This document shows positions 1-33,833 of a stretch of DNA of 64,000 bases, one piece after another (position 1 is the stretch's first letter; each line of letters begins with the position of its first letter). Made by a program: the position numbers and the translations under genes. The notes beneath the pieces were generated by a model. It made no database searches. It was given only the letters and a program-made list of their open reading frames with translations, and had not been told where the DNA came from. The stretch is from a virus (lineage: Duplodnaviria > Heunggongvirae > Uroviricota > Caudoviricetes). The stretch spans positions 59,159-123,158 of the IMG/VR virus record IMGVR_UViG_3300014024_000069. One strand, written 5' to 3'.

Positions 1-1048
1 ATAACCGACCAGGCACGCCCACCACACGGGCGGCACCGCAAAACAACCACCCCGAGCACCCAACACGAATGCGCTGAAATGGCATGGCACCCCCGCCGGA
101 ACCCATCACGTAAACAGGCCCCACCTGCAGGGCATGAACCCCGCAATCACCACACACGGCAATTCCTTCAAGACGCACCACCAGAGCATCCAGACGAAAC
201 ACAAAAAGAACCACCCCCGCCAGGGCGCGCCGGGACTGCAGAGACAATAGACGCGACACAGCGCCCCGGTATTGCGGTGAAAACGCATCCGCACCGATAA
301 ACAGGGTTGCCGCTCACCCCGCCACATGCTGGCGCCGCGTAAGAACCAGGCACAACAGAAGCGGCAAAGCTCCCCTGTGCCGCTCACACGCACCTTTACC
401 GGCATGCCCCTTTTTGCCAACTACCGCAGCAAAACCGACTATCCCGCACCTCCCCGCCATCCACAGCTACAGACACCATACCCGGCGCGCCACGGTTTGG
501 ACTTCCCGCAAGTACTGCCCCTCTTCACTCCACCACACGCAGAAAGCACACATGGTGGGCATTCATGGCGGCTTGCCTACCTTCTGCTTTTTACACGTGG
601 CCACGGTGGGGAAGGTTATCAACGTGCCGCCAACCACCCCAAAACAAACAGCATCCTACCGCCCCCGCCCTTCCTTCTTTCCGCCGTTGATTCATTCCAC
701 AAACCCCGATTTGCCAAACCAATAGACAAAGTGTATTATGGAAATATCACACTAGCTTTTATGTGATCAACAACCCCTCTGGTGAACAGCCCCACCAGGG
801 GGTCTTTTCGTGTAGCACCAACCAGAACCCGAAAGCATACTGTCAACCCCACGAAACCCTGCAGGGAAGCCTTTTCGACAACCCATTAGGACACGCGGCG
901 CAGGCATGCCCCCGTATCGCAGCATAAGAGCCTCAAGGTACCCCACCCCCACACCACACACGACACCCGCCGCTTCTTGTGCCCACGCACCACCCAATAA
1001 GGAACAAAGGAAGCGCACTATTCTTCTCCGCGACACGCAGACAAAAAA

Positions 1049-1070
1049 GGGGTGAGGGGGCGAAAGCCCC
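1049..1070 (+). repeat. GGGGTGAGGGGGCG-AAA-GCCCC hairpin motif, copy 1 of 5 (others at 2991..3013, 4616..4640, 5523..5544, 5627..5648)
   Basis: Each copy has GGGG(T/C)(G/A)(A/C)GGGGCG followed by a GNRA-like tetraloop (GAAA, GCTA, GACA, GCAA) and GCCCC. Three copies are preceded by CAAAA(A)G. Confidence 0.7.
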
Positions 1071-4000
1071 ATATGGTCGCACACACCAACACTTATCGAC
1101 GAACCCGACATGCCCCCCAGATCGCAGGTAAAACAAGAAGAACCCGCACTGAGGAAACAAAACGAACCCCGTCGCGCCCATCACGCCACCAGCCGCCGAT
1201 AACCGAACCATGCAGCGCCGGGCACCATACAGCCCACCGTCTCCCACGGTTACTGGGTCTTCCTTCCTTCACACGCCTGTCGTATGTGAAAAATGCCACA
1301 GCACGGACTGTGAGAAATGACGGGCACCGCCGACCACAGCAAAGCCACGACACCCCAACCTTTCCCAATACGTGAATACTGCAGCGACCCCCGACCCTCT
1401 TTTAGTTTTCCCGACGAAATCCCGTTAAGCGCAAGCGCCTGACTTCCCGACGACCCCGGCGCGCACGGACATCACCCGCACCAGCACACACCACACAGAT
1501 GAGACCATCGCCGTCAATGATTCAGGTAGGGCGACCAACCAGCAAAACACTATCGGCATGTGCGCCGCAGCCCCCCTATGCGCCTATGCGGGCACACCCC
1601 TGTGGGCTAGAGAATATTTTTGCAGAACCTGTGCACAAATTCTCTTTTTGCGAACAGACCCGAAAGCCGTCACCGCGCATTAACGCCGTAACCCCACCCC
1701 TACGAAACAGGGTGGAAAAAGCGGCGAGACACAGCCACCCATAACGTGACCATGCCCGCCGCCTCCCATACAGCCCAGATCCCTAATGTCCTCCCATTAT
1801 GGAACTCAATTAGTCAGGCCACACAAGTCTTACTTTTTCATGACCTTCTCACTAAGGAAACGAGCCTCATCCTCAGGGACAGTCAACACATCCCGCGCCG
1901 CGTCCCTATGTTTTTCATACTCACTCCACGTGAGCATTGAAGACACGCACAGGGATGCGGTACCCGCAAACCCTAGTACAACAATAGTAATCACCATTGC
2001 TGTTGCTGCACCGCCGTTAAGTAAGAAAAATAAGCCTGCCCCCGCAATAAGCGCACAAAGATTGCACTTAATCTCCGAGGAAATGTAAGAAAACTTCTTA
2101 TCCCGAGCAATCGCCTTATGCTTGTCGGCAAGCGCAAGGCGTGCGTCAATATCTTTGTGATTTTTAAATTCGTTCATGTTTATCCTACCTACATATCCTA
2201 ACTGGAACGCTCTCCACGCTAGGGGTGATTTATTTCCTTTTATTTAACAAAAACTCCACCGCGTACGGGAATGCCTTCCTCGCGGTACGCCCGCCATTTA
2301 CTGCGGGCCTGATTCCTACTTAAGCGACCACCACCGCCAAGCAACCGCTTCGTCGTCAATCCTGCTTGCCTCTTTATATGAGGAGGAAAGCAAAATCTCC
2401 TCAGACGCTTTGCTATGCATCCTTTTCGTGAGGTACTTCCCAGTAGCGAAAATGGTGAAGCAGCTACCAATCAGAACAGCAACGACACCCAAAGCCACCA
2501 CACTTAAATACTCGTCTTTCCATGCTCGGTAAGCAATGTTTTCACCAAACGAAATGATGAAAGCGCCTAACAAATACAGCATGACGGCACCTTTGCCGCG
2601 CAGACAAGCCAAACGCTCATGCTTTTCTGCGAGCCGCATAATTCTGCTTTCGTCCATTTCCTCCACAGTAGGAGATGAGTAGGAGTGCACAACGATGGGA
2701 AGATGAGATGTGGTGAATTGGTTGTAGTAGTTCATGCCTTAAATTATATATTTCCCCACAAGCCACCTCAACTAAATACCCCCACTGTTCACCCCTCTAT
2801 AGTGGAAGCGTCAACAAGGGATAGGCACACCGCCCACGCGCATTCTCCCCACCCCAACAAGCGACCACGCAAACCAACACTATTCACCAAACCAACCCCG
2901 CACTCACCATGAAAAACCATAAAGAAAAACAGGCAGACACCCCACAAGAAACCCCACCCCGTCACAAGACCACACAAACGCAAAAAAGAAGAGGGGCGAG
3001 GGGCGACATCCCCAGGAAGCAGGGAGCCAGGGGCAGAAGACAAAACACCGCCGTAAACCCCATGCCTCGCCGGGCCTGCAGTACACACCACATCCAGCGA
3101 ACAGATCCCCCCCCACCGCATCGTCACGAACCCCAGTATGCCGCCCGCCTTTGCGAAAACGCCGGTGTCGCACAAAGCAAGAAACCCAAACCACACCCAC
3201 AGGGGCACGCAGGTTCTCATGACAAAAATACCGACCCACTACCACACCGGCACCTGCCTGACGAGAAACAGTAACTGTACTCGCGCGGCCAACTATACGC
3301 GCCACCCGCATCAGTCTGCGAAATACGGCACCAACGAGAAGAAACACCAAAAACCCGTCTTGACTTCACGATATCGCCCTACCTCATCACAACCCGGCGC
3401 GCCAGGCCATGCATAGGAGCAATCGCCGTGGACAGGAAGCGACACACGGGCACATCACGCGCCAAAGGTACTTATCGACGCTCCCGCTAATCAGCGCCTG
3501 ATACTACTTCCCCGAAACCCCTCAACCGTGAATCATGCTGGAAACCCCATCAGGCATGTCTGCTTGTCCCCTACCCCGTTCACGTACCCCACAACGACAC
3601 GACCTCATCCATCCTGCGCGTGGTGTGCTGGTGACGTATGACGTAAATACGAGGGCATTCCCCTTTTTGCCGCAGGGTACCAGGAACCCCAGTCAGATAA
3701 AACCCTAAAGGAAACACCACATGGGGCACACGCCACCGCAGTATCATCAGAGGGGTGCCACTTAGGGGGCGCCTGTTCTCTCACGCGGTCAAGGTGCGAG
3801 AACCGCAAAAGAAAGTCGAATACACGTGGTTCCGCGCCAATAGTAGTGGATCTAATCTCCGCCCCCGCAGCTACTTGCCCCCTTCCGCTTGCCGCCGCGC
3901 CAGCAGATTCCACCCCCGCCTACGAACTAGCGCTTCCCTGGACAGGGCCTACATTCCTCCTTGCCCGCGTCTACCCATGCCTCACCGGCAAACGTGAACC

Positions 4001-7000
4001 ACAACAGCACCCCCCAACCCAGCGAACCCGCATAGCGACACCAACGCCGAGTGCAACACAATCACCCCACGCACCTCATCAAAAAGAAAAAGCCGCCGCA
4101 AGCCAGACACACCCCCGACGCGGCAGCCTCACACAAGCAACCTCTTCTAGATTTTCCCCACTAGCTCTCGCTCATCAATATAGTCAAGCCCATCCAGAAA
4201 CTCCCCCACGGTACGCGCAGCATCACCAGACGGTCCCCGCCACCGCTTATCGACGCTCCCGCGAAAAGGTGACCACACGCCGCAACCGCACACCTCCAAC
4301 AATGAAGCTCCAACACCACCGGCACACCCAGAGCATAATCCCGAGAACCCCACATTTCACATGTAGGACTAATCCGATTTCACGCCCTGCCTTCGTACCA
4401 GAAGAACCAGGAAACGACGAACACCACCACATACAAATGAAAAACAATGAGAAAAATCACACAACAACCCACACAGGAAAAGCGCTCCACCAAATTGTTA
4501 ACCCATCCCGCATCGCTCAGCTGTGTCGCCGCATGAACCACCACGGCAACCCAAAGAATACAAAGGAGACTTAAGAGAACACCAACACCACGGGGGCGGC
4601 GCCGTCACCATTTCAGGGGGGTGAGGGGCGCTAGCCCCCCAGCAAGAAACACCAGCGCCCCCAGTCCCGCCCCAACCACTAGCTGTCAACCAAGGAAAGC
4701 GCCCCACCTCCACAGCCCCTTGCCGCCGAGGGCAAAATCCACCCACGATGATTGCCGCAAGAACCCGCGCCGGGCACGTACGAAACCAGCGCAACCACAC
4801 TAGCGTGAGAGATTTTTGAGTGCACTGAACCCACGCCGACGTCAAAGCCACCCAAACACCCCGTCATATGACACACGGGCTTTCCTCAACACCAGCAACA
4901 AGGTTGCTGGCATAGCTGCGTTAGATAACCGCCGCGCATCACAGGGAGGCACCAGAGATCCCGCTAGACCCCAGATGTATGAACAGGGGCAAGGATTGAT
5001 GCGGAACACAGCCCCGTGACATCAGCGCCAACCCCGCCACCCATCATCCGAGAACAGTCTCCCACTTCACCACGCCAGTACCGTGTTGGCAGTGCCCTGA
5101 ACCACACGCACGCCAACGCCCCAACAAGACTCCCAATGGAGAAAAACACGATGCCCGTACAGCAACCCAGGGCACAACAACACCACCCGCCCACTACAAA
5201 TCCACACAAATCACCGCGCAGAAATGAAACCCAAAAAGAACACAACCGCAAGAAACCCCATATAGAACCCCAATCAACCACCGCTGGCACCCATGAGCGC
5301 CACAGAGACACAAAACACACGGGGGCGCGGCACAAACACCAGAACCAGGTAGGCGTTGGCGCGCAGGCAAAGACAAAAGGAAGAGAAACGATGCGGGCAA
5401 GGCGGGCGGGGCGCTCACTTGTTCCCGGCGCGACCCGTGCTGCTTATCGACGAGAACAGAAGAACCCCATGTGCCGCTGAACATCAACCGCCACTAGTGG
5501 GCACCCTTGGACTGCTTCAACTGGGGTGAGGGGCGACAGCCCCCTTATCTCCAACGCACACAAACCGGCATCCTCAGCACGGACCATACCCCCACGGGCG
5601 CGCCGCCGCCCGCCGACCAAAAGCAAGGGGGCACGGGGCGCAAGCCCCGCACAAGCACAACGCGACCAAACCAACCAAAACACAACACCCCCTTGGACGA
5701 ACACACCTAGCCCCACCCTCCCCAGCACACCCACTCCCCGCACATCACCACACAACCCCAAAAAACCACCCTCACAGCTCTTCTCCCTACACAACAACAC
5801 TCCCATAAGGAAAACCCCACGGGACACCCCAAAAGAACCGCCACAAGCCCCCAGGCCCAGGCATTCACCCGCCATGAGCCACCACAGCCCAAACCCACAG
5901 TGACACACAGACAAACCCGCCACAAAAGGGGGACAGTAACCCCCGCACAGAAACCCAAAGGAATCCCCAATAGTCACCCCACCTGCCGTACCCACACCCC
6001 CAGCCACAAACCACCCCGCACTAAAACTGTATGCAACCACCCCAAGCACCGCACCGAAACCCCCGCACAGCAACCACCACCCCACCCCTACTCGTGCTCA
6101 ACAACCGTAACCACCAGGAGGAAACCCTAATAGTGAAAACCAACAGTAACCCCCACAAAACCCAACCCCGCACAGAAACCCACAGACAATAGTAAACAAT
6201 CCCAACAACCCCCCCACTCAATGAGGACACACCCTCAAACCACCCCTATCAACACCAGCCACGGCACACCCTCACCCCAAACACCCAGTAACCAGCCCAC
6301 ATCCCTACACCACCCCCATAGCACCACAGAACAAGGCCCGGCGCGACAACACCAGCAATACCACCCACAGGCATAATCCCTGTTAGAAAAACCCAATTAG
6401 AACAACCTACGGACACCCCCTTTACCCTGCCCCTCACTCCCCTACATCAGGACACACCACAAGACCCTCAGCACAGGCACCCCTCAGTCACAGACAAAAC
6501 ACCACCAAGAAAAATCCCTACTAGGACATCTTCTAGAAAAACCAAAAGAAACCCCCTACACCCCTTCATCCCTCCCCACCAAAGAACAACCCAAAAAGAA
6601 ACACACAAAGAAAACACCCCCAGAAACAACAAAAAGACCAAAACCCCCAACAACCACACACACAAACCAACAAACAACTCGCAGGCACCCCACCCACCAA
6701 GCCCCACCATACACACAAGCCGAGGGGGAGAGCAGCAAAGCAAACTCCCCCACGAGGGTGACAAGACGAAGCCTACAAGCAAATTTGCACAGCAAAAAGC
6801 GAAGAAGACAAGACGCAGACACCTAGACAAAACACAGACAACGAACCAACAACACCCCAAAGGGCGTGGCAGTTGGGAGAGCATCTGAGTTTTGACTACT
6901 TGCGTGAATGGTGGGGCGCAACCACGTGACCACACCAGCGCCCCGACCCGAAAACAGAATATATGCACCATAATGCATGTATTGTGTTTGAGGGGAGGGG

Positions 7001-7120
7001 TTGTGGTTGTGTCCGATTTTTACTGTTTTTTGTTTGGAATCCCACATATGTCTAATCAGGGCACTGTTCTAAGATTGCACCCGGACTGCAAAAATATTAG
7101 GTGGAAACCCTTGAATTAAG

Positions 7121-7159
7121 GGTGTTTTCCCGTGTTTCTGGAGACTGGACTATCACTTA
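7121..7159. repeat. Left arm of a 38/39-bp inverted repeat (partner at 7443..7481) flanking a ~280-bp AC-rich segment
   Basis: ggtgttttcccgtgtttctggagactggactatcactta is the reverse complement of taagtgatagtccagtctccagaaacacggggaaacact (1 indel). Confidence 0.85.
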
Positions 7160-7442
7160 ACGGGAAAACCGTCGCAAAAACATCAAACAATTAACGATGC
7201 GTACACCCGTGAAACACACACCCCGCACACAAAAACCAACAACTCTGCGCAACAAAACCACACAAACAAAAACCAAAACACAAAAGTGAGCGCAGCAATG
7301 CGACAGATCAAGGCGATCACTCATACGACAGCGGCCGACACCCAAACAGGCAAAGACCTCTATTCGTTAGTGTCAGAAACGCAAAACCAGCGGCACAACA
7401 ACCCCAAGCCACACAGCAACAAAACCCCAGGTCGCAAAAAAT

Positions 7443-7481
7443 AAGTGATAGTCCAGTCTCCAGAAACACGGGGAAACACTT
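7443..7481. repeat. Right arm of the inverted repeat
   Basis: See the left arm. Confidence 0.85.
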
Positions 7482-8293
7482 CTCAACCACACCCCACGGC
7501 AGCACCACCAACAAGCGAGGGCATCATCACCAAAAGACCAACCCTTACGCAAGAACAAAACCCAAAGACACACAGCAACACGCCCCACATCTTGATAAGG
7601 CGACGGACGTCAGAAAACACATGCTCCGTATCCGATGGATACAACCGCACGCCTATTGCGACCCCCAAAAAGATAACCCCCTACAGTTATCCGAACACCC
7701 CTGACGAGCAGAACATAGTACGCGGACCTCGAACCAGAACCCCACGCAAAACCATCACGTGCCCAGCGCGCCGGGCACTCACAGGCAAGAGAACGACCGC
7801 ACGTCAACTATGCGAACTGTCCTTATACGCAACAGACCACACAACGACACCGAAACCACAAATGCAACATACCCCCATGAAAGGCCGATCACGCCACACC
7901 CACAATAGGCGTACCCGCTCGCCAGCACGTGCGTGCATAATGAAACCCCCACCTGCTCCACATAAAGTAAAACAAGCGGGGGTGATTCACTCCACTCAGA
8001 AAAAGATGGGTTCCTAAAACCCAAAACAAAGAATAACACACAGTAAGCAAGAAAGCGAAACGACACACAAGCACTAATCCAAACGCCCGTGCCACCCCAC
8101 TACAAGTCAAGACCCCAACAGGAGCTAATAGCCCACCCTCTTACTTGCTCCCACAAGGGATCATTGGAAATACACCCCTCAGAAACTCCGCCAGCATTTC
8201 ACCTAGATAACCCACCCCAACCACACACCACCCCGCCGCAAGTTTTCAAAGACGACACCCCATGTGGTACACTATGACCATGCACATGCGCAT

Positions 8294-8378
8294 GGAAGTG
8301 TGGCAGAGCGGACTATTGCACCTGTCTTGAAAACAGGAGTGTCGAGAGGCACCGTGGGTTCAAATCCCACCACTTCCG
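8294..8378 (+). tRNA. tRNA-Ser (anticodon TGA), type II with long variable arm; no encoded CCA
   Basis: Cloverleaf read directly: acceptor GGAAGTG/CACTTCC, D-stem GCA/TGC, anticodon stem CCTGT/ACAGG with loop CTTGAAA, long variable arm AGTGTCGAGAGGCACC, T-arm GTGGG-TTCAAAT-CCCAC, discriminator G. Confidence 0.8.
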
Positions 8379-8636
8379 CAAAACAACCACCATCACCCCT
8401 TGCAGGGAACACTGATGGTGGTTTTCCTTATGAACACACCCACAATGCAACCCTTGCGAGCATCCTTGCCTCCAACACTATTCCTAAACATGGGCTGGTT
8501 CAAGAAGACCAGCCACACCCCCACCCACACTCTGGTTGCCCTGGTTGTCTCCGCCACGAAACCCGCACAAGAAAACCCTGCGACACACCCCGCATGTGTT
8601 TTGACCAGCGCCCCGAAACGCAATAAAATACACTAC

Positions 8637-8900
8637 ATGGAAAAACAACTAGAACAACCCTCCGAACAACTGCGCGACGTGGCATCCAGCAACCACAACT
8701 ATGTTGTGTCGCTGCACCAACAGCTTGTCGAGCACCGCAAGCAACACGGCCCGTCGATGGAGGAAATGGAAGAGCGCACAGGATGGAGCGTCGAAAAGCT
8801 GGAAAACTTTGAACGCTACGACGCTAACCCCACCCTCAACGATATTGCGCGGTACGCCACCGCCCTAGAGGTGCGCATCCAAGACATACACAAACCGTAG
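8637..8900 (+). CDS. XRE-family (Cro/C1-type) helix-turn-helix transcriptional regulator, ~87 aa
   Basis: C-terminal part of the 8400..8900 ORF from the internal ATG: LVEHRKQHGPSMEEMEERTGWSVEKLENFERYDANPTLNDIARYATALEV is a canonical XRE HTH. The upstream part of that ORF is P/T-rich compositional read-through. Confidence 0.6.
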   Translation: MEKQLEQPSEQLRDVASSNHNYVVSLHQQLVEHRKQHGPSMEEMEERTGWSVEKLENFERYDANPTLNDIARYATALEVRIQDIHKP

Positions 8901-9079
8901 TCAACGCGGACAGCAATGAATCAATATTCCTCACACAACAACACGGCTAGTGCGCTTACTTAACCGCCAAACCCTTTTTCATGAAGCCCGCCCTGACAAC
9001 ACAGAGCACAAAAACTTAACACTCGCTTAGACACACGTAAACAGCTACAAGACAAAAACCGGCAAAGGAGAAACAAAAC

Positions 9080-12000
9080 ATGTCACATGAAACAATTGAA
9101 CAACTCATCAAGACCGACAAGATTCACCCACCAAAAAGAATCAAGCACCCCGATCATGTACATGACTTCCCCGCAATATGGGGGATGCTCACCAGGAACG
9201 TTGCCGACAACAGGAAAGAGTCAACAGTCAACCACCTAGTGGCACTCACTAGCTGGCTATCAGAAATTGAGGTGGCAAAAACAAAAGCCACCACACCAAA
9301 CACCATCACCAAAACAGAAACGAAAGCAGGCAAGCCCCACACCGCACAGGAGGCATGGGGCGCTGAAACCGAAATTAAGCTAAGCAACGAGGAAGCCCTA
9401 GACAAAGACACCTACCTTCTCACCACCAAAGGATGGGTGAAAATCACCGACATTACCCACAACAGTGAAATTGCCCAATACCACCCTGGCACCCAAACAA
9501 TCAGCTTCACCAAACCACAACAAGTAACCCAGTTTGAGGCTGAATACCGATACAAATTCACCAACACGCAAACCGGTGTGGTGCAAATCGTGTCACCCAA
9601 CCACCGCATGTACTTTGAACGCCTAAACCCCGACACCGGCATGTGGGAAGACCGAGTATGTCTTGCCCACGCATACGAGTCGGAGGTCAAGAAAGGCGAA
9701 ACACGTCTCCGTGTTGCCGCACCCACCCGCATCACCAGAAGGCGCATGACAGACGCGGAAAAACTCGCACTCGTCATGCAGCTACTCCCCATCCATTACA
9801 GTGATGGTGAATACACCATTGAATGCGGATTCGGAAACGTCGAAACCGTCCAAGAATACGCCCGCGCCGCCGGAGTGACCGTCAAATCCACCACCAACTA
9901 CAACGACGACCGCTACAGCGTCACCCTCGCACCCAGCCGTGAAATCAGCAAACAGCTACACCCCGTGTTCCGGGGATACCGGCAAGAAAACGGCAACCAC
10001 TACGCACACGACTACATGAACGTAGTACTATCCGTTTCCGACATCTCCTGCCTACCAGGGCACCACTACCGCATAAACGTGCCCCTCGCCAAAACCATCC
10101 AAGAGGCAGCGTTCGCCGCCGGGTACAAAACAACCCGCACCGGCAACACTATTGACATTTCCATCACAAGCGCCACCACGCCCGCCAGCACCGATCTTGT
10201 GGTAGAGAAACTAGACGGTGAAACAACCTACTGCGTCACCGTCCCCACAACATTCATCGTCACCAAACACCAGCAATCAACAACCCCCGTCATCACAGGC
10301 AACTGCCTTACCCGTGAACACGTCGCAGACAGTCTTGACGCATCCCACAACCCAGGGTGGGGCGACAGCGGCGAAATCATGAACGAACTAGCCCACGAAA
10401 TCAACTGCTGCCTACCCGACAACCTGGAAAACCAACTAGACGGCATCGTCAGCGGTGTTTTAAGCCACGTTATTTACGAACCACACATGGCGAACATCAC
10501 CTACGACCCCTCTGTTCATGACACGCAATCAATAAGGTCACTGCACTATGGGCGCATGGTGAATAAAACCAAACCAAACAGTAACCAGTGCATCTGGGGA
10601 AACACCCTCATCCTCACAAACAAAGGCTACATCCGCGCCAACGAAATCAACAACGATAACAGCATTGAAATAGCGTGCTACAACCCAAACACACAACAAA
10701 TCACCCACGACTCAGTGTTCAGCATCATTGGTGGCAGCACCCTGCCCGCAGGCATGGTCAACACCATCAAAACAAGCCCACAACAACTATTCCACGTAGC
10801 AACAACCCACGGACCCCGCAACCTCACCGCACTGGAAATCTCACAAGAAAAAACCACCTTCTGGAACCACGCACCCAGCATCCTGGAAAACAAACCCTTC
10901 AAAACCTCCAACGAAGGAACCAGCATGCCCCACTACGCAACCGGGCTTCTGGTGACACTACTCAACGAAGCCGGATTCCCCACCGAAGAGAAACCAGAAA
11001 AAGAAAACCACATCAAATACAACACCTTCCGCATGCCAGACGAACTCGCGGAAGAAATCATCAAAGGAAAATACTCAAAAACCCTCAAACAAGCACGCAT
11101 CAACGAATACCGATACCTCGTCATTGATGCCGAAAAACTCCCCACCATCAACATCCACGCAATCGCCGCAAACCTTAACGAAAAACAACTAGAAAAACTC
11201 TACGACTTTGCGGTAACAATCACCCAAAAAATCTACGGGGCAAACGCACTCACCCACTCCGAAACCCTGAAACAACTCAAACAAGCAGTAAAGGAAAAAA
11301 CACTCACACAACCAGAAACACAATACACAGAAGAAGACGCAAAAATACTTGCCGTATACAGTGAGGAATACGGTGAGAAATTCTGGCTGGAACAACCCGA
11401 ACACACCCGCAGCATGTGCAGCATCATGACACCAACCGGCTACTACATCGCCCGGTCACGAAACGAACAAAAATCAACCCCCGTCATCATGCGCTGCGAC
11501 AACGCCAACCAAGAATACGACGACACCATCAAACAACTACGACAAGCCCTCACCCCCGAACAGAAAAGCGACTTCATCAAAGCCGTGAACAACCTCGCCC
11601 AACACCACATCAACATCACCCCCTGCCTCTACCCCGGAAAAGGAAAGAATTTCATAAAACTAACCCAAACAACTATCATTGAACAAGTACACAGCCTCGC
11701 AACCTGCGTGGGCGCACCAATCCACACACTCCAAATACCAACACAAAAGAAAGGAGAAATCATGACAACCAAACAAGACAAAAACCTGCCCTACAGGGCA
11801 ATCAACCTGGGTGACGACAGACACTACCTCACATACAGCACCTCCCCGCAAACCACTGTGGAGCTACTGAGGGTCAACACGCCTGACAAGAAAACCAATA
11901 AGACAAAATACGCCAAACGCGCTGCCCTACTCGCAGCCCCTGCAGTTGGAACCTTCTCAGGACTAATCCTCCACTCCGCCGTAGGAATCCCACTCAGCGC

Positions 12001-12394
12001 GGTATCAATCCTTGCGATCATCGCAATGATCGCGTGCATGGTGCTGAAAAAAGACGACACCGTGGAAGTAGTGCAACAAGCACTCGGTGCCGCACCCGTC
12101 AGCCTGAACACCGTGAACACCCTGGCGCGGGTGAAGAACTCACGATCACAACGTGAAAAAGAAGTACTACAAAACCGCAGGGGCACCATCATTGATGCGT
12201 TCACCAACGACCGCATCATGGAGGAAGACATGACCCGTCTCCTTGATGAGATGATTCACCGCGTCAACAACGAACTGGAAAGCCTTAGCGATGAACGCAA
12301 AGCAGAATCCAAGACAATAGCCGACGCATACTTGGATGCAGACGCGGCTATCTACAGCGGATCCGAACCGATCATCCCAGAACTGGAACTGTAA
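9080..12394 (+). CDS. Large modular membrane protein, paralog 1 of 3 (1104 aa): conserved N-terminal domain, two Hint-like modules, TM helices, conserved C-terminal domain
   Basis: SD AAAGGAG upstream of the ATG. N-terminus LVALTSWLSEIEVAKTK is shared with the two downstream paralogs. Hint-block-A-like motifs are YLLTTKGWVKITDI and CIWGNTLILTNKGYIRANEI..IACYNP; a block-B-like motif is VATTHGP. Shared mid-motifs: TPTGYYIAR, ITPCLYPGKGKNFIK, CVGAPIHTLQIP. Hydrophobic helices lie around aa 950-1000. The C-terminus RRGTIIDAFTNDRIMEEDMTRLLDE...SKTIADAYLDAD is shared with the paralogs. Confidence 0.8.
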   Translation: MSHETIEQLIKTDKIHPPKRIKHPDHVHDFPAIWGMLTRNVADNRKESTVNHLVALTSWLSEIEVAKTKATTPNTITKTETKAGKPHTAQEAWGAETEIKLSNEEALDKDTYLLTTKGWVKITDITHNSEIAQYHPGTQTISFTKPQQVTQFEAEYRYKFTNTQTGVVQIVSPNHRMYFERLNPDTGMWEDRVCLAHAYESEVKKGETRLRVAAPTRITRRRMTDAEKLALVMQLLPIHYSDGEYTIECGFGNVETVQEYARAAGVTVKSTTNYNDDRYSVTLAPSREISKQLHPVFRGYRQENGNHYAHDYMNVVLSVSDISCLPGHHYRINVPLAKTIQEAAFAAGYKTTRTGNTIDISITSATTPASTDLVVEKLDGETTYCVTVPTTFIVTKHQQSTTPVITGNCLTREHVADSLDASHNPGWGDSGEIMNELAHEINCCLPDNLENQLDGIVSGVLSHVIYEPHMANITYDPSVHDTQSIRSLHYGRMVNKTKPNSNQCIWGNTLILTNKGYIRANEINNDNSIEIACYNPNTQQITHDSVFSIIGGSTLPAGMVNTIKTSPQQLFHVATTHGPRNLTALEISQEKTTFWNHAPSILENKPFKTSNEGTSMPHYATGLLVTLLNEAGFPTEEKPEKENHIKYNTFRMPDELAEEIIKGKYSKTLKQARINEYRYLVIDAEKLPTINIHAIAANLNEKQLEKLYDFAVTITQKIYGANALTHSETLKQLKQAVKEKTLTQPETQYTEEDAKILAVYSEEYGEKFWLEQPEHTRSMCSIMTPTGYYIARSRNEQKSTPVIMRCDNANQEYDDTIKQLRQALTPEQKSDFIKAVNNLAQHHINITPCLYPGKGKNFIKLTQTTIIEQVHSLATCVGAPIHTLQIPTQKKGEIMTTKQDKNLPYRAINLGDDRHYLTYSTSPQTTVELLRVNTPDKKTNKTKYAKRAALLAAPAVGTFSGLILHSAVGIPLSAVSILAIIAMIACMVLKKDDTVEVVQQALGAAPVSLNTVNTLARVKNSRSQREKEVLQNRRGTIIDAFTNDRIMEEDMTRLLDEMIHRVNNELESLSDERKAESKTIADAYLDADAAIYSGSEPIIPELEL

Positions 12395-12450
12395 AAACCG
12401 CCAATCCCGCACCCCCTCTATACCACCAACAACACGAAAGGAAGCACAAC

Positions 12451-14455
12451 ATGTCATATGAAACAATCAGGGAACTAGCAACCGTCAAAGAAACCACCGA
12501 AATACGCAAAATGCAACTAAGTCACTGGTGTAGGAGATTCTTTGACGGTGAGGAATACTACAAATTCTGGGAACTGCTCATCAAGCAACTAGGCAGCAAC
12601 AGCAGGAGCAATGAAACCGACCCAGATCTCGCAAACCTCGTGAACTTCCTATCGGATATTGAGCACGCTAAGCGTAAAACACACGAGCTAATCCCCGCCG
12701 CAAAAGAAAGGGATGCATCATACTTCCCGTCATGGATTACGACAAAAGAAAGAATCTCAATCATAAAGGAGATGATGAAAAATGAAGAATTTATCAATGC
12801 TCCACAAAAATCACTGAACAGAAAAGAAGAAGCAGCTCTAGATAATCCAGAGCTGCAAGAACTAGAACGCAATCCTCAATGGAGCGACATTAATGATCTC
12901 ATCACAGAACTTGCAGAAGAAACAAAGAAGCACCTTTTTGGAACATCGGATTACAAGCTTCATGATGTTGTAGGTGAAGTCTTGTCAAGACTCATCTACA
13001 CCCCACACGCACAAGCCCTCTCCCAAACAAACACTAAGTTGTCTGGAATCATCCAGAAAACCAACAGCACCCCTGGAGGAGGCATTGGCTACAACGCTGA
13101 ACTGCTCACCAACAAAGGCTACATCAGAATCACTGAGCTATATCGCAATCAAGATGCCGAAGTAGAAATTGCGTGCTACTGCCCAGAAACAAAAGAAACA
13201 CTCTACTATCCACAATCAGAAGTGATCATCAAAAAGTCATCTGGGGACACAGACGCATCGGTGAACGGCATTAAGGTAAATAGCAAACAACGAATACACA
13301 CAAAAACGAAAAAATGGAAACGCGATGTCAGCATAGAGCACGCTAAGAAACTCAACGTCTCAGAGGACACGAAAACAAGCACGTCGCCCTACTGGGGAGA
13401 AAGAGACATAATTTTCAAAATCCTCAGCCCAACAGGGTACTGCATCGCAAAGAAAGCTTCACTCGACGAAGAGGAATCCGTCACCCTGTGCTGCAAACCC
13501 GTGGAGGAGGAAACCGAAGAATTACTACTAAACGGCTTCAGGTACAGCAGAGAACGCGAAAAAGATGGGCGACATTGCCCTACGACTAGCACAAGCGCAC
13601 GTAGATGCCCTGCAGTCCATCTACGACGACCCTCACATCATCAGGGAAGTGGCGCAAAACATCAGAGAGCAACTAAGCTACATCAATACATGCTGGGAAG
13701 CGCCTCACCGCAAACTCAAACTACCCAAAAAACCCACCATCTACACCAAAACCCTAAAGAAAGGAAAGAAAAAAGAAATGGCTTCCTCAAAAGTAACCCG
13801 TGAGGGAGGAATCAAACTAGATGACACACACGCACTTGAATTTCAAGAAATCAAAGGAAACAAGTACTATGTCATGCTCCGCGAGTACGAAAAATGGGAA
13901 AGCGACGAAAAAGAAAACCGTGCAGTCAGTCTAATCGACCGGTCAATAAAAGCACTCAAAGGGACAATAGAATTGGCAGCCTCCATGCTCGTGATCCTTT
14001 GGATCTTCAACCTATTCTCCGTACCAGCATTGTTCATGCACCTAACACAGGCAATTATGCTCACCACGCTCCTCGTTGCTGTACCTGCCATCTTCATCAA
14101 AAGCTACTCCAAAGAAGAACAATGCATCAACTGGTCTACGATACTAGATGAAAATTTGGGGCGTGTAGCAGCTACCATCCCAGTAAACAAGGAAACCTTT
14201 GATTCGTTGTACGAAATCTACCAGTACGACAACAAGGAAAACCTGGGATACCTACAGGGCAAAAACAGCATTATCATTGATGTCTTCACAAACGAAAAGG
14301 TCACCGATAAAGACTGTACACGTTTCATTCAAGAAACCGCCAAACGGGCAAAGCAGGAAATGATAGCAGTGAAAACTGAACGCAATGAGGTATCAAAAAC
14401 CATTGTTGACGCATACCTTACGGAATCATACAGCGAATCCACGCTGAACGACTAG
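12451..14455 (+). pseudogene. Paralog 2 of the modular membrane-protein family, disrupted by a +1 frameshift near 13540-13565 (ORFs 12451..13803 and 13565..14455)
   Basis: ORF A carries the conserved N-terminus (LANLVNFLSDIEHAKRKTHE), the Hint-like module (ELLTNKGYIRITEL..EIACYCP) and SPTGYCIAKK, then degenerates into arbitrary sequence. ORF B in the +1 frame carries the family motifs INTCWEAPHRKLKLP (cf. CVGAPIHTLQIP and CLGAPLRDFKITP), the TM helices and the conserved C-terminus GKNSIIIDVFTNEKVTDKDCTRF...SKTIVDAYLTESYS. The first ATG-initiated ORF in the B frame begins at 13565; the frame itself is open from ~13527. Confidence 0.65.
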
Positions 14456-14580
14456 TAAAGCACAAAGCAAAGCGCCCATTCTTCACCCGCAAACATGGGC
14501 AAGATGGGCGCTTTGCTTAAACAACAACATCTCTCCCCAACTAACCTCACCTCCACTACTGCTGACTGCTAGGACACGCA

Positions 14581-17040
14581 ATGTACAAAACAATAAAACA
14601 ACTAGTAGCAAACAAAAGACCCAAAAGAAACCTCACCAAGTTTGAGGACGGACGAGAGTTCTACGCATTCTGGGAGAACCTTTCAGAAAACCTTAACGAG
14701 TCGAAAATATCAAAAGAAAAACAAAATGAACTCATCTCGCTTGTCAGCTGGATGTCTGAAATTGAAGTAGCAAAACGCGACACCCACGAGGTTGAAGACG
14801 CCAATGAACCCGTATTCGGTGAACGACTCATGTTTAACGCCCACACCGATGAAACCAGCCAAGACAGGTACGTAATTGACATAGTTCAACGGTCACCCCA
14901 CGTGGAGGGTCACCGTAAATGGAAAGCAGGAAGAGAGCACGTAAATAAACTCACCAGCGCACTTTCCGTCCATCGCGGCGTGTCAGAAAAATACATTCAT
15001 TCCATCACTGGTGAGATCATCAGCCGGGTCATATACAGCCCTCATACAGAGGCGAAAATAGGATACGACACCGCAGGGATATACCGTGTACGTCAACCCA
15101 TCAACAAAGAATACGGAGGAAGCGTCGGGAACAACACCAGCATTCTCACCAACGGTGGATACATCAATATTGAACAACTACGCAAAGCAAAACAATCAAA
15201 GGAATCATCCAGGTCCATCAAGGTTGCCTGCTATAACCCAGTGTCGAAAGACATAGAGTACGTTGAGCTGTCAAAAATAGACATCAAGGAAGACAACCAC
15301 AACGTTCCAATAGCGCGCGCCAACAATGTTGAATCCAGCGATACCCAACTAGTACACGTTGATACAAAGCAGGGTCCACTGAACTTAACCGTCAGTGAAA
15401 TCATGCACGTTGAGAAATTTGACCCCACCTGCTTCACGAACCCCGCCAATGAAGCGTTGACGAAGACTCTCAACGACATCAATCACAATGCCAGCAATGG
15501 GAATCTCGGAACATTCAATACATCAGTGCTTTTATCCATGCTCGAAGAAGCAGGAGTACCCAATCATAGTGGAAGGTTCAGAGTTTCCGACTATCCAAAC
15601 CTCACGGACAAAATCAAGAAGTTGGACAAACAGGGTTACCTAAATCATGTCAGCGTTTCTAGAAACGGAGAAGAGGTCATCCTTGACGAAGAAGGATTCC
15701 AGGAGAGCCTTAAAAGCGAAAACAGGATCTTGGACACGGATGAATTGCTTGACCTTTACGCATTCTCTGGCGATGTTCATGAAATCCTTAACGAGAAGAA
15801 TGATTTCATCTCACAAACGTACAACGAACTGGAACGAAAAGTTAAGGAACTCGCGCAGCAAAATAGTCTAACCACACCAGAAAGCAAAGTAATCTCAACC
15901 TGGCACATGGCAATCAGCAAATATCCAGCTGGGAAGGGGAAGAAGTTTCTTCAAAGTCAAAAAATGTTCCACATCAAAACGCCAACAGGGTATGTTGTGG
16001 CGAAAAGGAACCAGTCACCAGTAATCTTGTGTGGAAAGTCAATAAACCACGATACACAGTATATTCACACCATTGGGGATAGAGAGTTTCAAGCAAACAA
16101 CTGCATAGCTGACGCGGTAAACGAACTTGCCCTGTACCACATCAAAATACTGCCGACCATATACAAGCATGAAGACAAAAATTTCATCAAACAGATGGAA
16201 TACTCAATCGTCAAGCAGGCGCACCACATATGCTCATGTCTCGGTGCTCCTCTACGCGACTTCAAGATAACACCACTCGTACAAGAAGAGGGAAACAGCG
16301 TACATCAACAAGAAGTGCAAGACATGGCACCAGGCACACTGCCACCACCAACCAACAAGAAAGAAGAGGTAAAAACAATGAGTGACGACGACAAGAACTT
16401 GATAGACAAAATTAGAATGAGCACAATAGACATACTACTTGACGAAAAATATCGTCTCGACATCCGTCTTGGGCCTAACAGATCAATTTTTGTTGAAATA
16501 GACAGAAACTATGTCAAAGAAAATAAAGAACAAGATCGCAGACTTGAGCAAAAGTACTACTTCACGTTACCCCTAGTTGCCATTTTAATGGCTTCTTCTA
16601 TATTGGTTTATAGAATAGTAGGCAAGATTAGCTACATCAGTGAAGAAATCGCAGGACTACTGTCATCTATGTTGATATTCATCAGCTTAAGTCTAGTCTT
16701 ATCACTTCTCCACCAATGGGCGACAACTGTAAAAAGAGAAGTAGAGGAAATCGCCAAGGTGTCTGTTGATACTAACACCGCAAATATTCTAATAAAGTCT
16801 ATCGAGTCACGCTACACCGAAGACACAGATCTACTTAGAAAAAGAAGCGGCATCATCGTAGATGCGCTCACCAACAATGAACTCACCTCTGACGACAAAA
16901 CTAGGTTCATGAGTGAGCTTGCTCAACGAATTAGCAGCGAAATGGAAAGTGAGAATAAGGAGCGGGAAGAAAAATCAAAAGCTATACTATCGTCATACCT
17001 TGAATCAGACTCAATCGTCTACGGAACAGGCAAGGAATAG
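14581..17040 (+). CDS. Large modular membrane protein, paralog 3 of 3 (819 aa), Hint-like module with Ser at the block-A position-1 equivalent
   Basis: N-terminus LISLVSWMSEIEVAKRDTHE; Hint-like module SVGNNTSILTNGGYINIEQL...IKVACYNP; KTPTGYVVAKR; ILPTIYKHEDKNFIKQ; CLGAPLRDFKITP; three hydrophobic helices; C-terminus KRSGIIVDALTNNELTSDDKTRFMSE...SKAILSSYLESDS. Confidence 0.8.
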   Translation: MYKTIKQLVANKRPKRNLTKFEDGREFYAFWENLSENLNESKISKEKQNELISLVSWMSEIEVAKRDTHEVEDANEPVFGERLMFNAHTDETSQDRYVIDIVQRSPHVEGHRKWKAGREHVNKLTSALSVHRGVSEKYIHSITGEIISRVIYSPHTEAKIGYDTAGIYRVRQPINKEYGGSVGNNTSILTNGGYINIEQLRKAKQSKESSRSIKVACYNPVSKDIEYVELSKIDIKEDNHNVPIARANNVESSDTQLVHVDTKQGPLNLTVSEIMHVEKFDPTCFTNPANEALTKTLNDINHNASNGNLGTFNTSVLLSMLEEAGVPNHSGRFRVSDYPNLTDKIKKLDKQGYLNHVSVSRNGEEVILDEEGFQESLKSENRILDTDELLDLYAFSGDVHEILNEKNDFISQTYNELERKVKELAQQNSLTTPESKVISTWHMAISKYPAGKGKKFLQSQKMFHIKTPTGYVVAKRNQSPVILCGKSINHDTQYIHTIGDREFQANNCIADAVNELALYHIKILPTIYKHEDKNFIKQMEYSIVKQAHHICSCLGAPLRDFKITPLVQEEGNSVHQQEVQDMAPGTLPPPTNKKEEVKTMSDDDKNLIDKIRMSTIDILLDEKYRLDIRLGPNRSIFVEIDRNYVKENKEQDRRLEQKYYFTLPLVAILMASSILVYRIVGKISYISEEIAGLLSSMLIFISLSLVLSLLHQWATTVKREVEEIAKVSVDTNTANILIKSIESRYTEDTDLLRKRSGIIVDALTNNELTSDDKTRFMSELAQRISSEMESENKEREEKSKAILSSYLESDSIVYGTGKE

Positions 17041-17046
17041 ACAACA

Positions 17047-17718
17047 TTGACTGCGAAAAACAGCAAAGAAAAAACCGCCATAGACTTAGGCGACGGCAGG
17101 AGACTGGAACTATACAGAGACTATGGCAGAGATCCCAAACACCATCCCGTATCTGAAATCACGCTAGTAAAAGAACCACCAGAGAGCAAGGACACCAAAA
17201 AGATTGTCAATACAGCGCTTTTATCTGCACTGAGCGCGGTAATCGCACTGGTGTCACTCGTATTGTCTTTCGTCATGTATGGCAACATGTGGGGCTGGTT
17301 AGTGCTCATATTGGTTACCGTAGCATCTGCAGGGCTTGCCATTAGAAACCTCATCTCTACATTGCGGTTGATTCAGTTCAACTATCGAGAAAAGGAAGAG
17401 GGGAGGATTGACATTTACCATATGAACGAGCGGTACCTTGATGAAATTGAACGTCTCCAGGCAATCAACATCATCATGCCTGACCTTATAAAGATGCAGT
17501 CTAAACAGATCATTGAAAAGCTCGCAGACGGCAAACAGGACTACCAGTTGAAAAGACACCAACTACGGCGAATCATCGAGGATATGGAAAAAGATGCGGC
17601 TGAAACCTACAATCCCAATCCTGACAACAAAAAGAGCATTTTCATGCAAAAAAATGACACGGAAGAAACTGTCAATGTAGGTGATGTGTCGTCAAACGAA
17701 ACTCAAAACCAACAGTAG
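17047..17718 (+). CDS. Hypothetical membrane protein (223 aa, TTG start), two TM helices followed by a charged coiled-coil-like tail
   Basis: ORF directly follows paralog 3, with AGGAA 8 nt upstream of TTG. Hydrophobic stretch ALLSALSAVIALVSLVLSFVMYGNMWGWLVLILVTVASAGLAI. Confidence 0.5.
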   Translation: MTAKNSKEKTAIDLGDGRRLELYRDYGRDPKHHPVSEITLVKEPPESKDTKKIVNTALLSALSAVIALVSLVLSFVMYGNMWGWLVLILVTVASAGLAIRNLISTLRLIQFNYREKEEGRIDIYHMNERYLDEIERLQAINIIMPDLIKMQSKQIIEKLADGKQDYQLKRHQLRRIIEDMEKDAAETYNPNPDNKKSIFMQKNDTEETVNVGDVSSNETQNQQ

Positions 17719-17732: not shown

Positions 17733-17763
17733 CCCCAGAGTTTTTACCCTCTGGGGTTTTATT
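17733..17763 (+). terminator. Rho-independent terminator after the paralog operon
   Basis: CCCCAGAG-tttttacc-CTCTGGGG hairpin followed by TTTTATT. Confidence 0.65.
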
Positions 17764-19549: not shown

Positions 19550-19655
19550 TGGCGTAAAGAAGCAGAACAGGGAAATGTCAATGCCGCACAGTAGTTAGGC
19601 ATTGAAAAACCGCACCTTCCCTAATGTTAAGGGTTGGGTGTGGTTTTTGTTTAAG

Positions 19656-19737
19656 TGCGCCTGGGGAGAGTCGAACTCCCATGCCCGTAGGCGCTGGAAC
19701 CTAAATCCAGTGCGTATACCAGTTCCGCCACAGGCGC
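19656..19737 (-). tRNA. tRNA-Leu (anticodon TAG), type II
   Basis: Reverse complement: GCGCCTG-TG-GCG-GAACTGGTATA-CGC-A-CTGGA-TTTAGGT-TCCAG-(13-nt variable arm)-GGGAG-TTCGACT-CTCCC-CAGGCGC-A. Confidence 0.8.
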
Positions 19738-19792
19738 ATTAGTGAGAGCAGGAAATGACGAACGTGTGCTAAAAGCACTTCCTGCCCTCAAG

Positions 19793-19865
19793 CTCCGCTG
19801 GGTGGACTCGAACCACCAGCCGCCCGGTTAACAGCCGAGTGCTCTGCCAATTGAGCTACAGCGGA
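19793..19865 (-). tRNA. tRNA-Asn (anticodon GTT)
   Basis: RC: TCCGCTG-TAGCTCAATTGGCAGAGCA-CTCGG-CTGTTAA-CCGGG-...GTGGTTCGAGTCCAC-CAGCGGA-G. Begins 1 nt after the CCA of tRNA-Trp. Confidence 0.8.
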
Positions 19866-19866
19866 A

Positions 19867-19942
19867 TGGAGCGAGCAACGGGATTTGAACCCGTACTTAC
19901 TGCTTGGAAGGCAGTTATGCTAGCCGTTAACATTATGCTCGC
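19867..19942 (-). tRNA. tRNA-Trp (anticodon CCA), CCA encoded
   Basis: RC: GCGAGCA-TA-ATGT-TAACGGCTAG-CATA-A-CTGCC-TTCCAAG-GCAGT-AAGT-ACGGG-TTCAAAT-CCCGT-TGCTCGC-T-CCA. Confidence 0.8.
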
Positions 19943-19966
19943 AAAAAGGGAATCTCTTCCCTTTAG

Positions 19967-20042
19967 TCGGGGTGACGGGATTTGAACCTGCGATCTCCTG
20001 TTCCCAAAACAGGCGCTTTAGCCCAAGCTAAGCTACACCCCG
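19967..20042 (-). tRNA. tRNA-Pro (anticodon TGG)
   Basis: RC: CGGGGTG-TA-GCTT..AAGC-G-CCTGT-TTTGGGA-ACAGG-AGATC-GCAGG-TTCAAAT-CCCGT-CACCCCG-A. One A:C mismatch in the T-stem. Confidence 0.65.
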
Positions 20043-20117
20043 CAAGGTGAACGCTACTCATGATGGACATTGAATGTTTTGCAGTTGGTTGTGTGGACCC
20101 CAGCACAAGTATCGTCG

Positions 20118-20189
20118 CTGACCTACTAGGACTCGAACCTAGAAAGCTGGCACCAAAAACCAGCGTGTTGCCAATTACACCATAGGTCA
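20118..20189 (-). tRNA. tRNA-Gln (anticodon TTG)
   Basis: RC: TGACCTA-TG-GTGT-AATTGGCA-ACAC-G-CTGGT-TTTTGGT-GCCAG-CTTT-CTAGG-TTCGAGT-CCTAG-TAGGTCA-G. Acceptor stem perfectly paired. Confidence 0.8.
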
Positions 20190-29822: not shown

Positions 29823-29875
29823 GCAAAACCACCATAGCCTTGGATTTCTTTTACCCAAATCATGGTGGTTTTGTG
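29823..29875 (-). terminator. Hairpin terminator downstream of tRNA-Leu(CAA) on the minus strand
   Basis: AAAACCACCAT...ATGGTGGTTTT inverted repeat (12-bp stem) followed on the minus strand by a T-rich run (TTTTGCTTT). Confidence 0.5.
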
Positions 29876-29876
29876 G

Positions 29877-29960
29877 TACCCCTGGCGGGACTCGAACCCG
29901 CATTCCACGAAGGGAGCCTAATTTTGAGTTAGGAGCGTCTGCCGATTTCGCCACAGGGGC
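29877..29960 (-). tRNA. tRNA-Leu (anticodon CAA), type II
   Basis: RC: GCCCCTG-TG-GCG-AAATCGGCAGA-CGC-T-CCTAA-CTCAAAA-TTAGG-(15-nt variable arm)-GCGGG-TTCGAGT-CCCGC-CAGGGGT-A. Confidence 0.8.
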
Positions 29961-33542: not shown

Positions 33543-33620
33543 TGGTGCCCTTGGCAGGATTTGAACCTGCAACCTTTTCCGTATCAGAGAAACGCTCTCA
33601 CCAGATTGAGCCACAAGGGC
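33543..33620 (-). tRNA. tRNA-Ile (anticodon GAT), CCA encoded
   Basis: RC: GCCCTTG-TG-GCTC-AATCTGGTGA-GAGC-G-TTTCT-CTGATAC-GGAAA-AGGTT-GCAGG-TTCAAAT-CCTGC-CAAGGGC-A-CCA. Confidence 0.8.
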
Positions 33621-33622
33621 TT

Positions 33623-33699: not shown

Positions 33700-33706
33700 A
33701 TGACCG

Positions 33707-33780: not shown

Positions 33781-33833
33781 ATTAGTAGCCACTTACCCCA
33801 CGACAAGTAGAATGCCGCATGGGTTGTGTCTAG

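Follow-up and report, generated by a model that had tools for sequence, protein, structure and literature searches.

Inteins are expected to splice or to be lost, and a non-splicing intein normally wrecks the protein that hosts it. What, then, does it mean when intein-like modules stand in three neighbouring genes and most of them lack the terminal Asn of an intein? The question is raised by a locus in 64,000 nucleotides of viral DNA (Caudoviricetes; positions 59,159 to 123,158 of IMG/VR record IMGVR_UViG_3300014024_000069), the whole of which we call the window. Its open reading frame (ORF) list places three genes in tandem on the + strand, labelled here P1, P2 and P3, with residues numbered along each full ORF product. 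We compared the window with contigs of related strains (L002 to L005) and with database proteins (P0012 to P0016 and others). The answer that we favour, with a probability of roughly 75%, is a joint one: a fixed, non-splicing, intein-derived domain (module 2) was in place before the gene was triplicated, and P1 later acquired a class 3 intein (module 1). The three genes are as follows.

9080 to 12394, + strand: paralog P1, an ORF of 1104 amino acids (aa), host protein with two Hedgehog/intein (Hint) modules
12451 to 14455, + strand: paralog P2, two overlapping ORFs (12451-13803 and 13565-14455), ~667 aa if repaired
14581 to 17040, + strand: paralog P3, an ORF of 819 aa

A first-pass annotation, made from the sequence alone, had described a tandem triplet of + strand paralogs, and both the ORFs and tblastn within the window bear this out. 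P1 matches P3 over module 2 (1e-21), the C-terminal part (6e-30) and the N-terminal part (5e-8), and the N-terminal part of P3 matches P2 (3e-15). The similarity far exceeds chance, and by this measure P1, P2 and P3 are paralogs. All the family motifs that had been quoted are present in the paralog alignments: LVSWLSEIEVAK, ILTN(K/G)GY, (I/V)ACYxP, TPTGYxxA(K/R), NFIK, C(V/L)GAP and IIDAFTN. The triplicated copies are now ~30% identical to one another. Their sizes differ because a 303-aa intein is found in P1 only and a ~165-175-aa insert of module 2 is absent from P2; the predicted range of 800-1100 aa holds for P1 and P3 and not for P2. Likewise, P1 proved to carry two Hint-like modules, as had been proposed. 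The modules lie as follows.

9395 to 10303, + strand: P1 module 1 (aa 106-408), class 3 intein of the AceL-NrdHF-like Met-Cys-Thr ('MCT') subgroup by homology and residue pattern
10589 to 11494, + strand: P1 module 2 (aa 504-805), Hint domain with a ~175-aa insert; position 1 Cys (C504), block-B-like TTHGP, block-F Cys (C780), no terminal Asn
13081 to 13494, + strand: P2 module 2 (aa 211-348, 138 aa), a mini version; position 1 Gly, block-B-like site without His, block-F Phe, no insert
15121 to 16032, + strand: P3 module 2 (aa 181-484), Hint domain with insert; position 1 Ser, block-B-like TK(H/Q)GP, polymorphic (His/Gln), block-F Phe in place of Cys, no terminal Asn

The module found in P1 alone

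Judged by homology and residue pattern, the stretch of P1 from residue 106 to residue 408 is a genuine class 3 intein and falls in the AceL-NrdHF-like subgroup. The AceL NrdHF intein has Ala1, a Met-Cys-Thr set replacing Trp-Cys-Thr, and neither of the usual His residues on the C-terminal side; the subgroup is marked by Ala1, Met at B:12, Cys at F:4, Thr at G:5 and no penultimate His (PMC7891396). Module 1 has this set: A106; S172, H175 and M177 in block B (S172-P-N-H175-R-M177, the S-x-x-H-x-M pattern of AceL NrdHF); C385 at F:4 (Y-C385-VTVP); T406 and N408 in block G, with no penultimate His (V-I-T406-G-N408); and C409 at +1. A terminal Asn followed by a +1 nucleophile is a further likeness to AceL NrdHF. 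The splice residues of module 1 are invariant in the 5 strains. The first-pass annotation had taken Ala at position 1 as a sign of degeneration. We read it the other way: Ala1 is a hallmark of AceL-NrdHF-like class 3 inteins, and the full set of splice residues is present.

Homology searches point to the same family. A database search with P1 returned its own orthologs and two ribonucleotide reductase (RNR) small-subunit proteins (1020 and 649 aa) only. By BLASTP, module 1 matched two inteins in the RNR small subunit P0013 (2e-12 and 1e-10) and the intein of the RNR small subunit P0014 (2e-10), and the likeness between the P1 and RNR inteins falls at both intein ends (BLASTP 2e-12, 1e-10, 1e-5). 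The profile homology to the AceL NrdHF class 3 split intein (PDB 6zgq; Hoffmann et al. 2020, PMC7891396) reached 9.6e-20 with a four-intein profile (A5), against 1.1e-4 with the single sequence. Intein matches by tblastn included the annotated RNR gene of Corynebacterium phage Darwin and an RtcB-like ligase gene of phage Lederberg. A wider search gave 35 relatives of the intein family, mostly in RNR beta, PolA, PhoH and helicase genes, and in the family alignment Ala1 and Cys1 members both have NHRM, (Y/R)C(V/L) and TGN followed by C or T.

The 303 residues of module 1 are missing from P2 and P3, whose flanking sequences align over the gap. Module 1 is carried by P1 in all 5 strains and in the 84-member cluster P0012, among which no intein-free P1 allele was seen. 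Each of the sequence properties of a class 3 MCT intein that we looked for was thus found, namely homology, the catalytic set and insertion relative to homologs. Module 1 is the module most likely to splice, as far as its residues allow a judgement. Splicing would begin with attack of Cys385 (F:4) on the peptide bond before Ala106; the N-extein would then pass to Cys409 (+1) and Asn408 would cyclise, yielding a mature P1 of ~800 aa and a free 303-aa intein.

Unlike the split AceL NrdHF, module 1 is contiguous and has a middle region of ~170 aa, the size of a homing endonuclease. Unlike the relatives of AceL NrdHF, it sits in the linker of an orphan, putative membrane protein and not at a conserved site of a replication or nucleotide enzyme. 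Related RNR inteins gave sub-threshold matches to LAGLIDADG_3 (E 0.005 and 0.012). To our knowledge, characterisation of the little-studied Ala1/MCT subgroup has until now been limited to one split intein; module 1 adds a contiguous member, whose host protein is unusual. Inteins of this type are of practical interest as tools for protein ligation.

Many relatives of the P1 intein (P0033-P0049, RNR beta proteins of ~340-360 aa) match its N-terminal quarter only, and both intein ends are present in just 10 intein copies from 9 proteins. The N-quarter-only RNR beta relatives may be natural split inteins like AceL NrdHF, or they may come from truncated contigs.

The module shared by all three paralogs

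The residues at position 1 of the modules are as first annotated: Cys in P1 module 2, Ser in P3, Gly in P2 and Ala in P1 module 1. The three copies of module 2 end in PVIMRC-DN (P1), PVILCG-KS (P3) and VTLCC-KP (P2), and neither by-eye nor hhalign alignment places an Asn at G:7 in any of them. Without a terminal Asn, module 2 would not undergo Asn cyclisation, C-terminal cleavage or splicing. The Cys1 copy in P1 has no terminal Asn either and cannot splice.

On its own, module 2 had no Pfam match and recovered no intein in PDB sequence or profile searches. Its homology to inteins emerged solely by profile-profile comparison and strengthened as the profiles improved. The hhalign probability against the intein family was 87.5% with the first profiles, 92.8% (E 4e-7) with endonuclease-free constructs and 95.3-95.8% (E 2e-8 to 3e-9, 132-134 columns) with the 11-member family profile. 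An AlphaFold model of the P2 mini module (window 13048-13530) had a predicted local distance difference test score (pLDDT) of 72 and a predicted template modelling score of 0.74. The top 27 PDB matches of this model in Foldseek were all inteins or bacterial intein-like (BIL) domains, 6zgq among them. The earlier assignment of the TNKGYI modules to the Hint/intein type is supported by both lines of evidence, and module 2 probably works like, and descends from, an AceL-NrdHF-like intein.

We then compared the ratio of nonsynonymous to synonymous substitution rates (dN/dS, by Nei-Gojobori, between strains; dS is 0.17-0.54 for P1 and P3). The P1 orthologs are 94-97% identical, with dN/dS 0.07-0.14; for P3, 11 orthologs were found, with 77-99% identity and dN/dS 0.19-0.33. 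Module 2 has dN/dS 0.06-0.15 in P1 and 0.16 in P3, which equals or falls below the values of the flanking parts of the host protein. No other segment has a dN/dS as low as that of P1 module 2 (0.00-0.07 in its N-terminal part), whose N-terminal Hint half shows 0 amino-acid against 8 synonymous changes in the most distant pair. Save for a few scattered substitutions, P1 module 2 is invariant across the 5 strains. By these ratios, module 2 is maintained by purifying selection in P1 and P3.

Two defining properties of an intein, a terminal Asn with a +1 nucleophile and a sporadic distribution, are not found in module 2. A HMMER profile search of 1.84 billion representative proteins returned the family's own members only, with no module-free relative. 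The description that suits module 2 best is that of a BIL-like Hint domain which stems from an intein, has become fixed and, as its residues suggest, is inert. The history that we propose starts before the triplication, when an AceL-NrdHF-like intein would have become fixed ~180-210 residues into the host protein. With the loss of its C-terminal Asn it would have become a lasting part of the mature protein, a Hint-fold domain on which purifying selection acts. Decay would since have proceeded by degrees, P1 keeping Cys1, TTH and the block-F Cys, P3 only Ser1, and P2 having Gly1 and no insert. A further intein of this family would have entered P1 alone at a later time, taking up residues 106-408 within a linker of low conservation.

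BIL domains of type B (Amitai et al. 2003, via PMC4031507) combine a Cys or Ser at the N-terminus with the lack of a +1 nucleophile and of an intein-like block G, and cleave themselves without splicing; module 2 resembles them in being a permanent Hint domain with no usable block G. The BIL structures 2lwy and 6y75 are among the best structural matches of module 2; these links to BILs are structural only, and the type B residues at position 1 are Cys in P1 and Ser in P3, with Gly in P2. BILs are viewed in PMC4031507 as having arisen from mutated inteins, which module 2 fits. Unlike BIL families, module 2 has AceL-NrdHF-like inteins as its nearest sequence relatives, has a large insert in P1 and P3, as endonuclease-bearing inteins do, and has also lost the N-terminal nucleophile context in two of its three copies. 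Unlike BILs, too, it is predicted to be cytoplasmic and is conserved rather than placed in a hypervariable region. The intein pseudogene Arth_1007 of Arsp-FB24 (Tori and Perler 2011, PMC3196547) is alike in being, according to the abstract of that paper, an intein relic in a gene of actinobacterial or phage origin, with flanks other than the conserved host protein that one would expect. Its exteins are given there as only 66 aa in total, whereas the protein around module 2 is some 500 aa long, exists in three copies and, along with the Hint domain itself, evolves under purifying selection.

The insert of module 2 was also considered as a degenerate homing endonuclease. This idea found no support, hhalign giving 0.1% against the intein endonuclease region and Pfam no match.

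A module that does not splice, has long been kept and would predate the triplication is a natural example of intein domestication. It is plausible that module 2 is an intermediate on the proposed route from inteins to Hint domains of the BIL and Hedgehog type. The three paralogs are ready-made 'mutants' for testing which residues matter. The locus is of interest mainly to intein and Hint specialists, for its traceable domestication series and for an intein family that standard annotation missed.

Host protein, strain variation and rival explanations

In-silico removal of the modules leaves host proteins of 499, 531 and 515 aa that can be aligned end to end. They start with a conserved ~75-aa domain and a helical linker ending in (I/V)(I/L)S(R/H)(V/L)IYxPH. 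Module 2, which begins ~180-210 residues into the host protein, is followed by a helical domain with NFIK and CxGAP, a charged linker and short strands. The C-terminal part consists of a hydrophobic hairpin of 45-60 aa and a conserved tail with IIDAFTN and a long helix. Two or three transmembrane (TM) helices had been noted; we found one hydrophobic stretch of ~45-60 aa per protein, which we read as a two-helix hairpin. With two membrane helices, both ends of the host protein are predicted to be cytoplasmic.

Whole and in-silico spliced proteins gave nothing above noise in Pfam, NCBIfam, PHROGs, PADLOC or PDB sequences, and structure searches with the host protein returned generic helical matches only. 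A GTDB genome scan with the P3 orthologs found no relative, and megablast found no match for the locus among phage records. In these searches the host protein is an orphan, of no known family and found in this lineage only. The first reading, which recognised no described family, stands: the host part was unmatched in Pfam, PHROG, PADLOC, PDB and the profile search of 1.84 billion proteins.

The first-pass annotation had pictured conserved ends with swapped middles and had suggested a look for hypervariable middles in related genomes. The apparent swapping reduces to the intein insertion in P1 and the insert absent from P2, and the Hint modules are conserved between strains. What varies is the juxtamembrane region and TM hairpin of P3.

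11900 to 12055 (approximate), + strand: hydrophobic hairpin of P1, aa ~941-992, from a Kyte-Doolittle scan
16381 to 16740, + strand: juxtamembrane and TM hairpin cassette of P3, swapped between strains, aa ~601-720, delimited by a drop in identity

Against L002, the P3 cassette has a nucleotide identity of 30-50%, compared with 89-99% in its flanks, and at the protein level the TM segments share 13% of their residues. The nine orthologs compared include at least two allelic types. The hairpins of P1 and P2 are not variable between strains. The variation looks like replacement of a cassette that forms a membrane-embedded specificity element. Gene conversion from a paralog was considered as its source and rejected, as no donor was found in the window or in the strain loci.

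The P2 gene is damaged by one extra A, as the annotated 'one decayed copy' had anticipated.

13559 to 13563, + strand: run of five A (A5), the cause of the P2 frameshift; the four other strains have A4 here

Deleting one A from this run reopens a frame of 667 aa. Intact P2 orthologs of 665-669 aa are found in L003, L004, L005 and P0015. P2 is separately frameshifted in L002 (+1 nucleotide at gene position 942; L002 7850-9869) and in P0016, so that the breaks lie in three different places in three lineages. Its overall dN/dS of ~0.35 is above those of P1 and P3. From this pattern P2 looks dispensable. The breaks reflect either recurrent inactivation or assembly errors at short A-runs.

Several observations weigh against the history of a fixed module 2 and a later intein in P1. 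For module 2, per-column confidence in the hhalign comparison is high only over block A and the first hairpin, ~50 columns at the start, and blocks B, F and G align at low confidence. The Hint model was built on a 12-row alignment, its Foldseek matches were modest (E 4e-4, TM-score about 0.5), and four other AlphaFold models had pLDDT 41-56. The full-length P3 model was poor (pLDDT 52) and had no informative structural match; in it the C-terminal module alone was well modelled, with pLDDT 70-87. Between the module 2 insert and the endonuclease region of the related inteins, hhalign detected no likeness (probability 0.1%). P1 module 2 retains both Cys1 and the block-F Cys, which makes some residual cleavage chemistry possible. 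For module 1, a poorly conserved linker of a non-essential-looking orphan protein is an atypical site for an intein, and its endonuclease-like middle has no Pfam match. The putative LAGLIDADG Asp ('YSDG') of this region is Asn ('YSNG') in L004 and L005, and the endonuclease is therefore probably degenerate.

The retained cysteines are the starting point of a rival explanation, in which P1 module 2 still cleaves itself as a functional Hint domain, in the manner of a type B BIL or a Hedgehog domain, and P2 and P3 are dead partners. A thioester at Cys504 or Cys780 would then free the soluble N-terminal part from the membrane-bound remainder, or transfer it. That P1 alone keeps Cys1, the TTH motif and the block-F Cys, invariant in 5 strains and within the segment of lowest dN/dS, speaks for it, as does the finding that type B BILs cleave without an intein-like block G (PMC4031507). 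The His, however, is off the B:10 register in the hhalign alignment, and there is no G:5 Thr, the residue that in AceL NrdHF assists the His of block B (PMC7891396). Moreover, P2 and P3 retain module 2 without the catalytic residues, so its conservation does not require catalysis. We regard self-cleavage as possible but doubtful. If P1 module 2 were active, it would make P1 a phage-encoded, autoprocessing membrane protein of the Hedgehog/BIL kind, traceably and recently derived from a class 3 intein and working together with dead paralogs. It is unlikely, though conceivable, that the locus displays side by side the steps by which an intein becomes a lasting domain of its host protein: module 1 as a live class 3 intein, P1 module 2 as a fixed copy still able, perhaps, to make a thioester and to cleave off or transfer the N-terminal domain, and the copies in P3 and P2 as dead structural domains, that of P2 having no insert.

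A different emphasis makes the P proteins membrane specificity determinants, acting in superinfection or entry exclusion or in the recognition of a partner membrane protein, with the Hint domains as passengers and the P3 hairpin cassette setting exclusion or compatibility types. The sharp allelic swap of ~110 aa, which covers the juxtamembrane strands and both TM helices of P3 between flanks of 89-99% identity, agrees with this, and so do the presence of at least two cassette types among nine orthologs, the position of the genes in a mobile element behind an Xre-type regulator, and the recurrent loss of P2, which suggests an accessory role. The argument is purely circumstantial, however; there is no similarity to known exclusion or defence proteins in PADLOC or PHROG, the hairpins of P1 and P2 do not vary, and module 2, being under purifying selection, is not a mere passenger. 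As a whole this account seems improbable to us. The exchange of the P3 hairpin, which is the sole functional clue, fits a specificity-determining membrane contact (exclusion or partner recognition), a suggestion that we make with low confidence.

Polymorphic toxins or diversifying surface proteins, whose Hint domains would free variable effector ends, had been among the possibilities first raised, and tandem paralogs with Hint domains, one decayed copy and one P3 segment swapped between strains do recall such cassettes. The C-termini, however, are the best conserved parts of the P proteins, the variable segment is a TM hairpin and not a terminal domain, and two copies out of three no longer have the Hint catalytic residues. 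The P proteins have no PF07591 (PT-HINT) or toxin domain in Pfam, no PADLOC or PHROG match and no signal peptide, and with the hairpin topology both ends would be cytoplasmic. Nor are the copies each followed by a small gene of the immunity kind. With no toxin and immunity pair, PT-HINT match or secretion signal, we consider a toxin or surface cassette hardly credible. Scarcely better is the notion that the region is decaying junk made of functionless, intein-ridden pseudogenes. The independent frameshifts of P2 in the window, L002 and P0016, its higher dN/dS (0.35) and the orphan status of the host proteins could be read in this way. Yet every strain sampled has intact P1 and P3 genes, with the low dN/dS values given above at dS 0.17-0.54, synteny is kept across contigs from different samples, and P2 itself is intact in L003, L004, L005 and P0015.

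Neighbourhood and genome

The genes and signals next to the triplet are these.

8601 to 8629, + strand: promoter-like site TTGACC-17-TAAAAT, 10/12 in a consensus scan, a pattern match only, just 5' of the helix-turn-helix (HTH) gene
8637 to 8900, + strand: small Xre-type HTH regulator (Pfam HTH_31/HTH_3; PHROG transcriptional regulators; PADLOC HTH_VI)
17047 to 17718, + strand: 223-aa protein with two TM segments, 6 nucleotides after P3, synteny conserved
17733 to 17756, + strand: terminator-like hairpin with T-run, a pattern match only, at the end of the putative operon

The pattern matches suggest one operon, running from the HTH gene through P1, P2 and P3 to the 223-aa gene. In L002 to L005 a gene of 87-102 aa occupies the place of the HTH gene upstream of P1. 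The 223-aa protein was considered as a fourth paralog; its layout resembles the C-terminal module, the BLASTP comparison was not significant, and the idea was rejected.

The exact P3 protein occurs on metagenomic contigs, and the whole gene order is kept on contigs from other samples, including a 234-kb contig of the Human Microbiome Project (HMP) sample SRS053917, which IMG/VR lists as a viral genome. The window has 11 tRNA genes, in three clusters and as singles (8294-8379, 19655-20189, 29874-29960, 33543-34005). It also encodes a class Ib RNR large subunit, a phage-type RNA ligase, an HNH endonuclease, ArdC, a primase, an enzyme of the penicillin-binding protein 1 (PBP1) type, a 1296-aa M23 and NlpC/P60 hydrolase, a 1601-aa ClpB and two SPFH/Band-7 genes. 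This mixture of tRNA, RNR, RNA ligase, HNH, SPFH/Band-7 and PBP1-type genes is unusual for a phage-like element. NrdE is 60% identical to that of Corynebacterium phoceense, the RNA ligase is 39% identical to those of Arthrobacter phages of ~190 kb, plasmids of Corynebacterium and Rhodococcus match the M23 region, and intein matches fall in Corynebacterium phages. The source is an element from human oral samples, and from these gene affinities we infer that it is jumbo-phage-like and belongs to an oral actinobacterium.

The ClpB gene has inteins of its own.

24500 to 29305: ClpB, 1601 aa, with two class 3 inteins of the Trp-Cys-Thr ('WCT') kind
25151 to 26110 (aa 218-537) and 27314 to 28333 (aa 939-1278): the ClpB inteins, directly after the Walker-A GK in both ATPase domains

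Both ClpB inteins have an AQPL start, SxxHLW in block B, a block-F Cys and an IVTHN end followed by T. They share with P1 module 1 the class, a non-nucleophilic first residue, Cys at F:4 and the genome. They belong to a different subfamily, with the AQPL start, Trp at B:12 and the THN end followed by T, and tblastn found no similarity between them and the modules of the P genes. Pfam detected neither of them; it misses the intein family of P1 as well, and automated annotation therefore overlooks all of these. The length of ClpB varies between strains from 1451 to 1609 aa.

Upstream of the putative operon lies a 38-bp inverted repeat (7122-7159 and 7442-7479, 37 of 38 positions complementary, ~280 bp between the arms), which is kept in the same orientation in four other strains. 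It could mark the end of a mobile element or an invertible segment. The + strand is exceptionally A/C-rich over window positions 1-12000, most strongly at 5500-8250, and the bias fades by ~18000. In this region T makes up 8-15% and G 11-22%, with an AT skew of up to 0.5 and a GC skew of down to -0.35. Several kb of it are nearly free of ORFs, the bias continues through P1 while gradually weakening, and the sequence is ~84% identical between strains, roughly the neutral level. The G+T-rich complementary strand resembles the effect of long exposure as single-stranded DNA, as in the mitochondrial H-strand.

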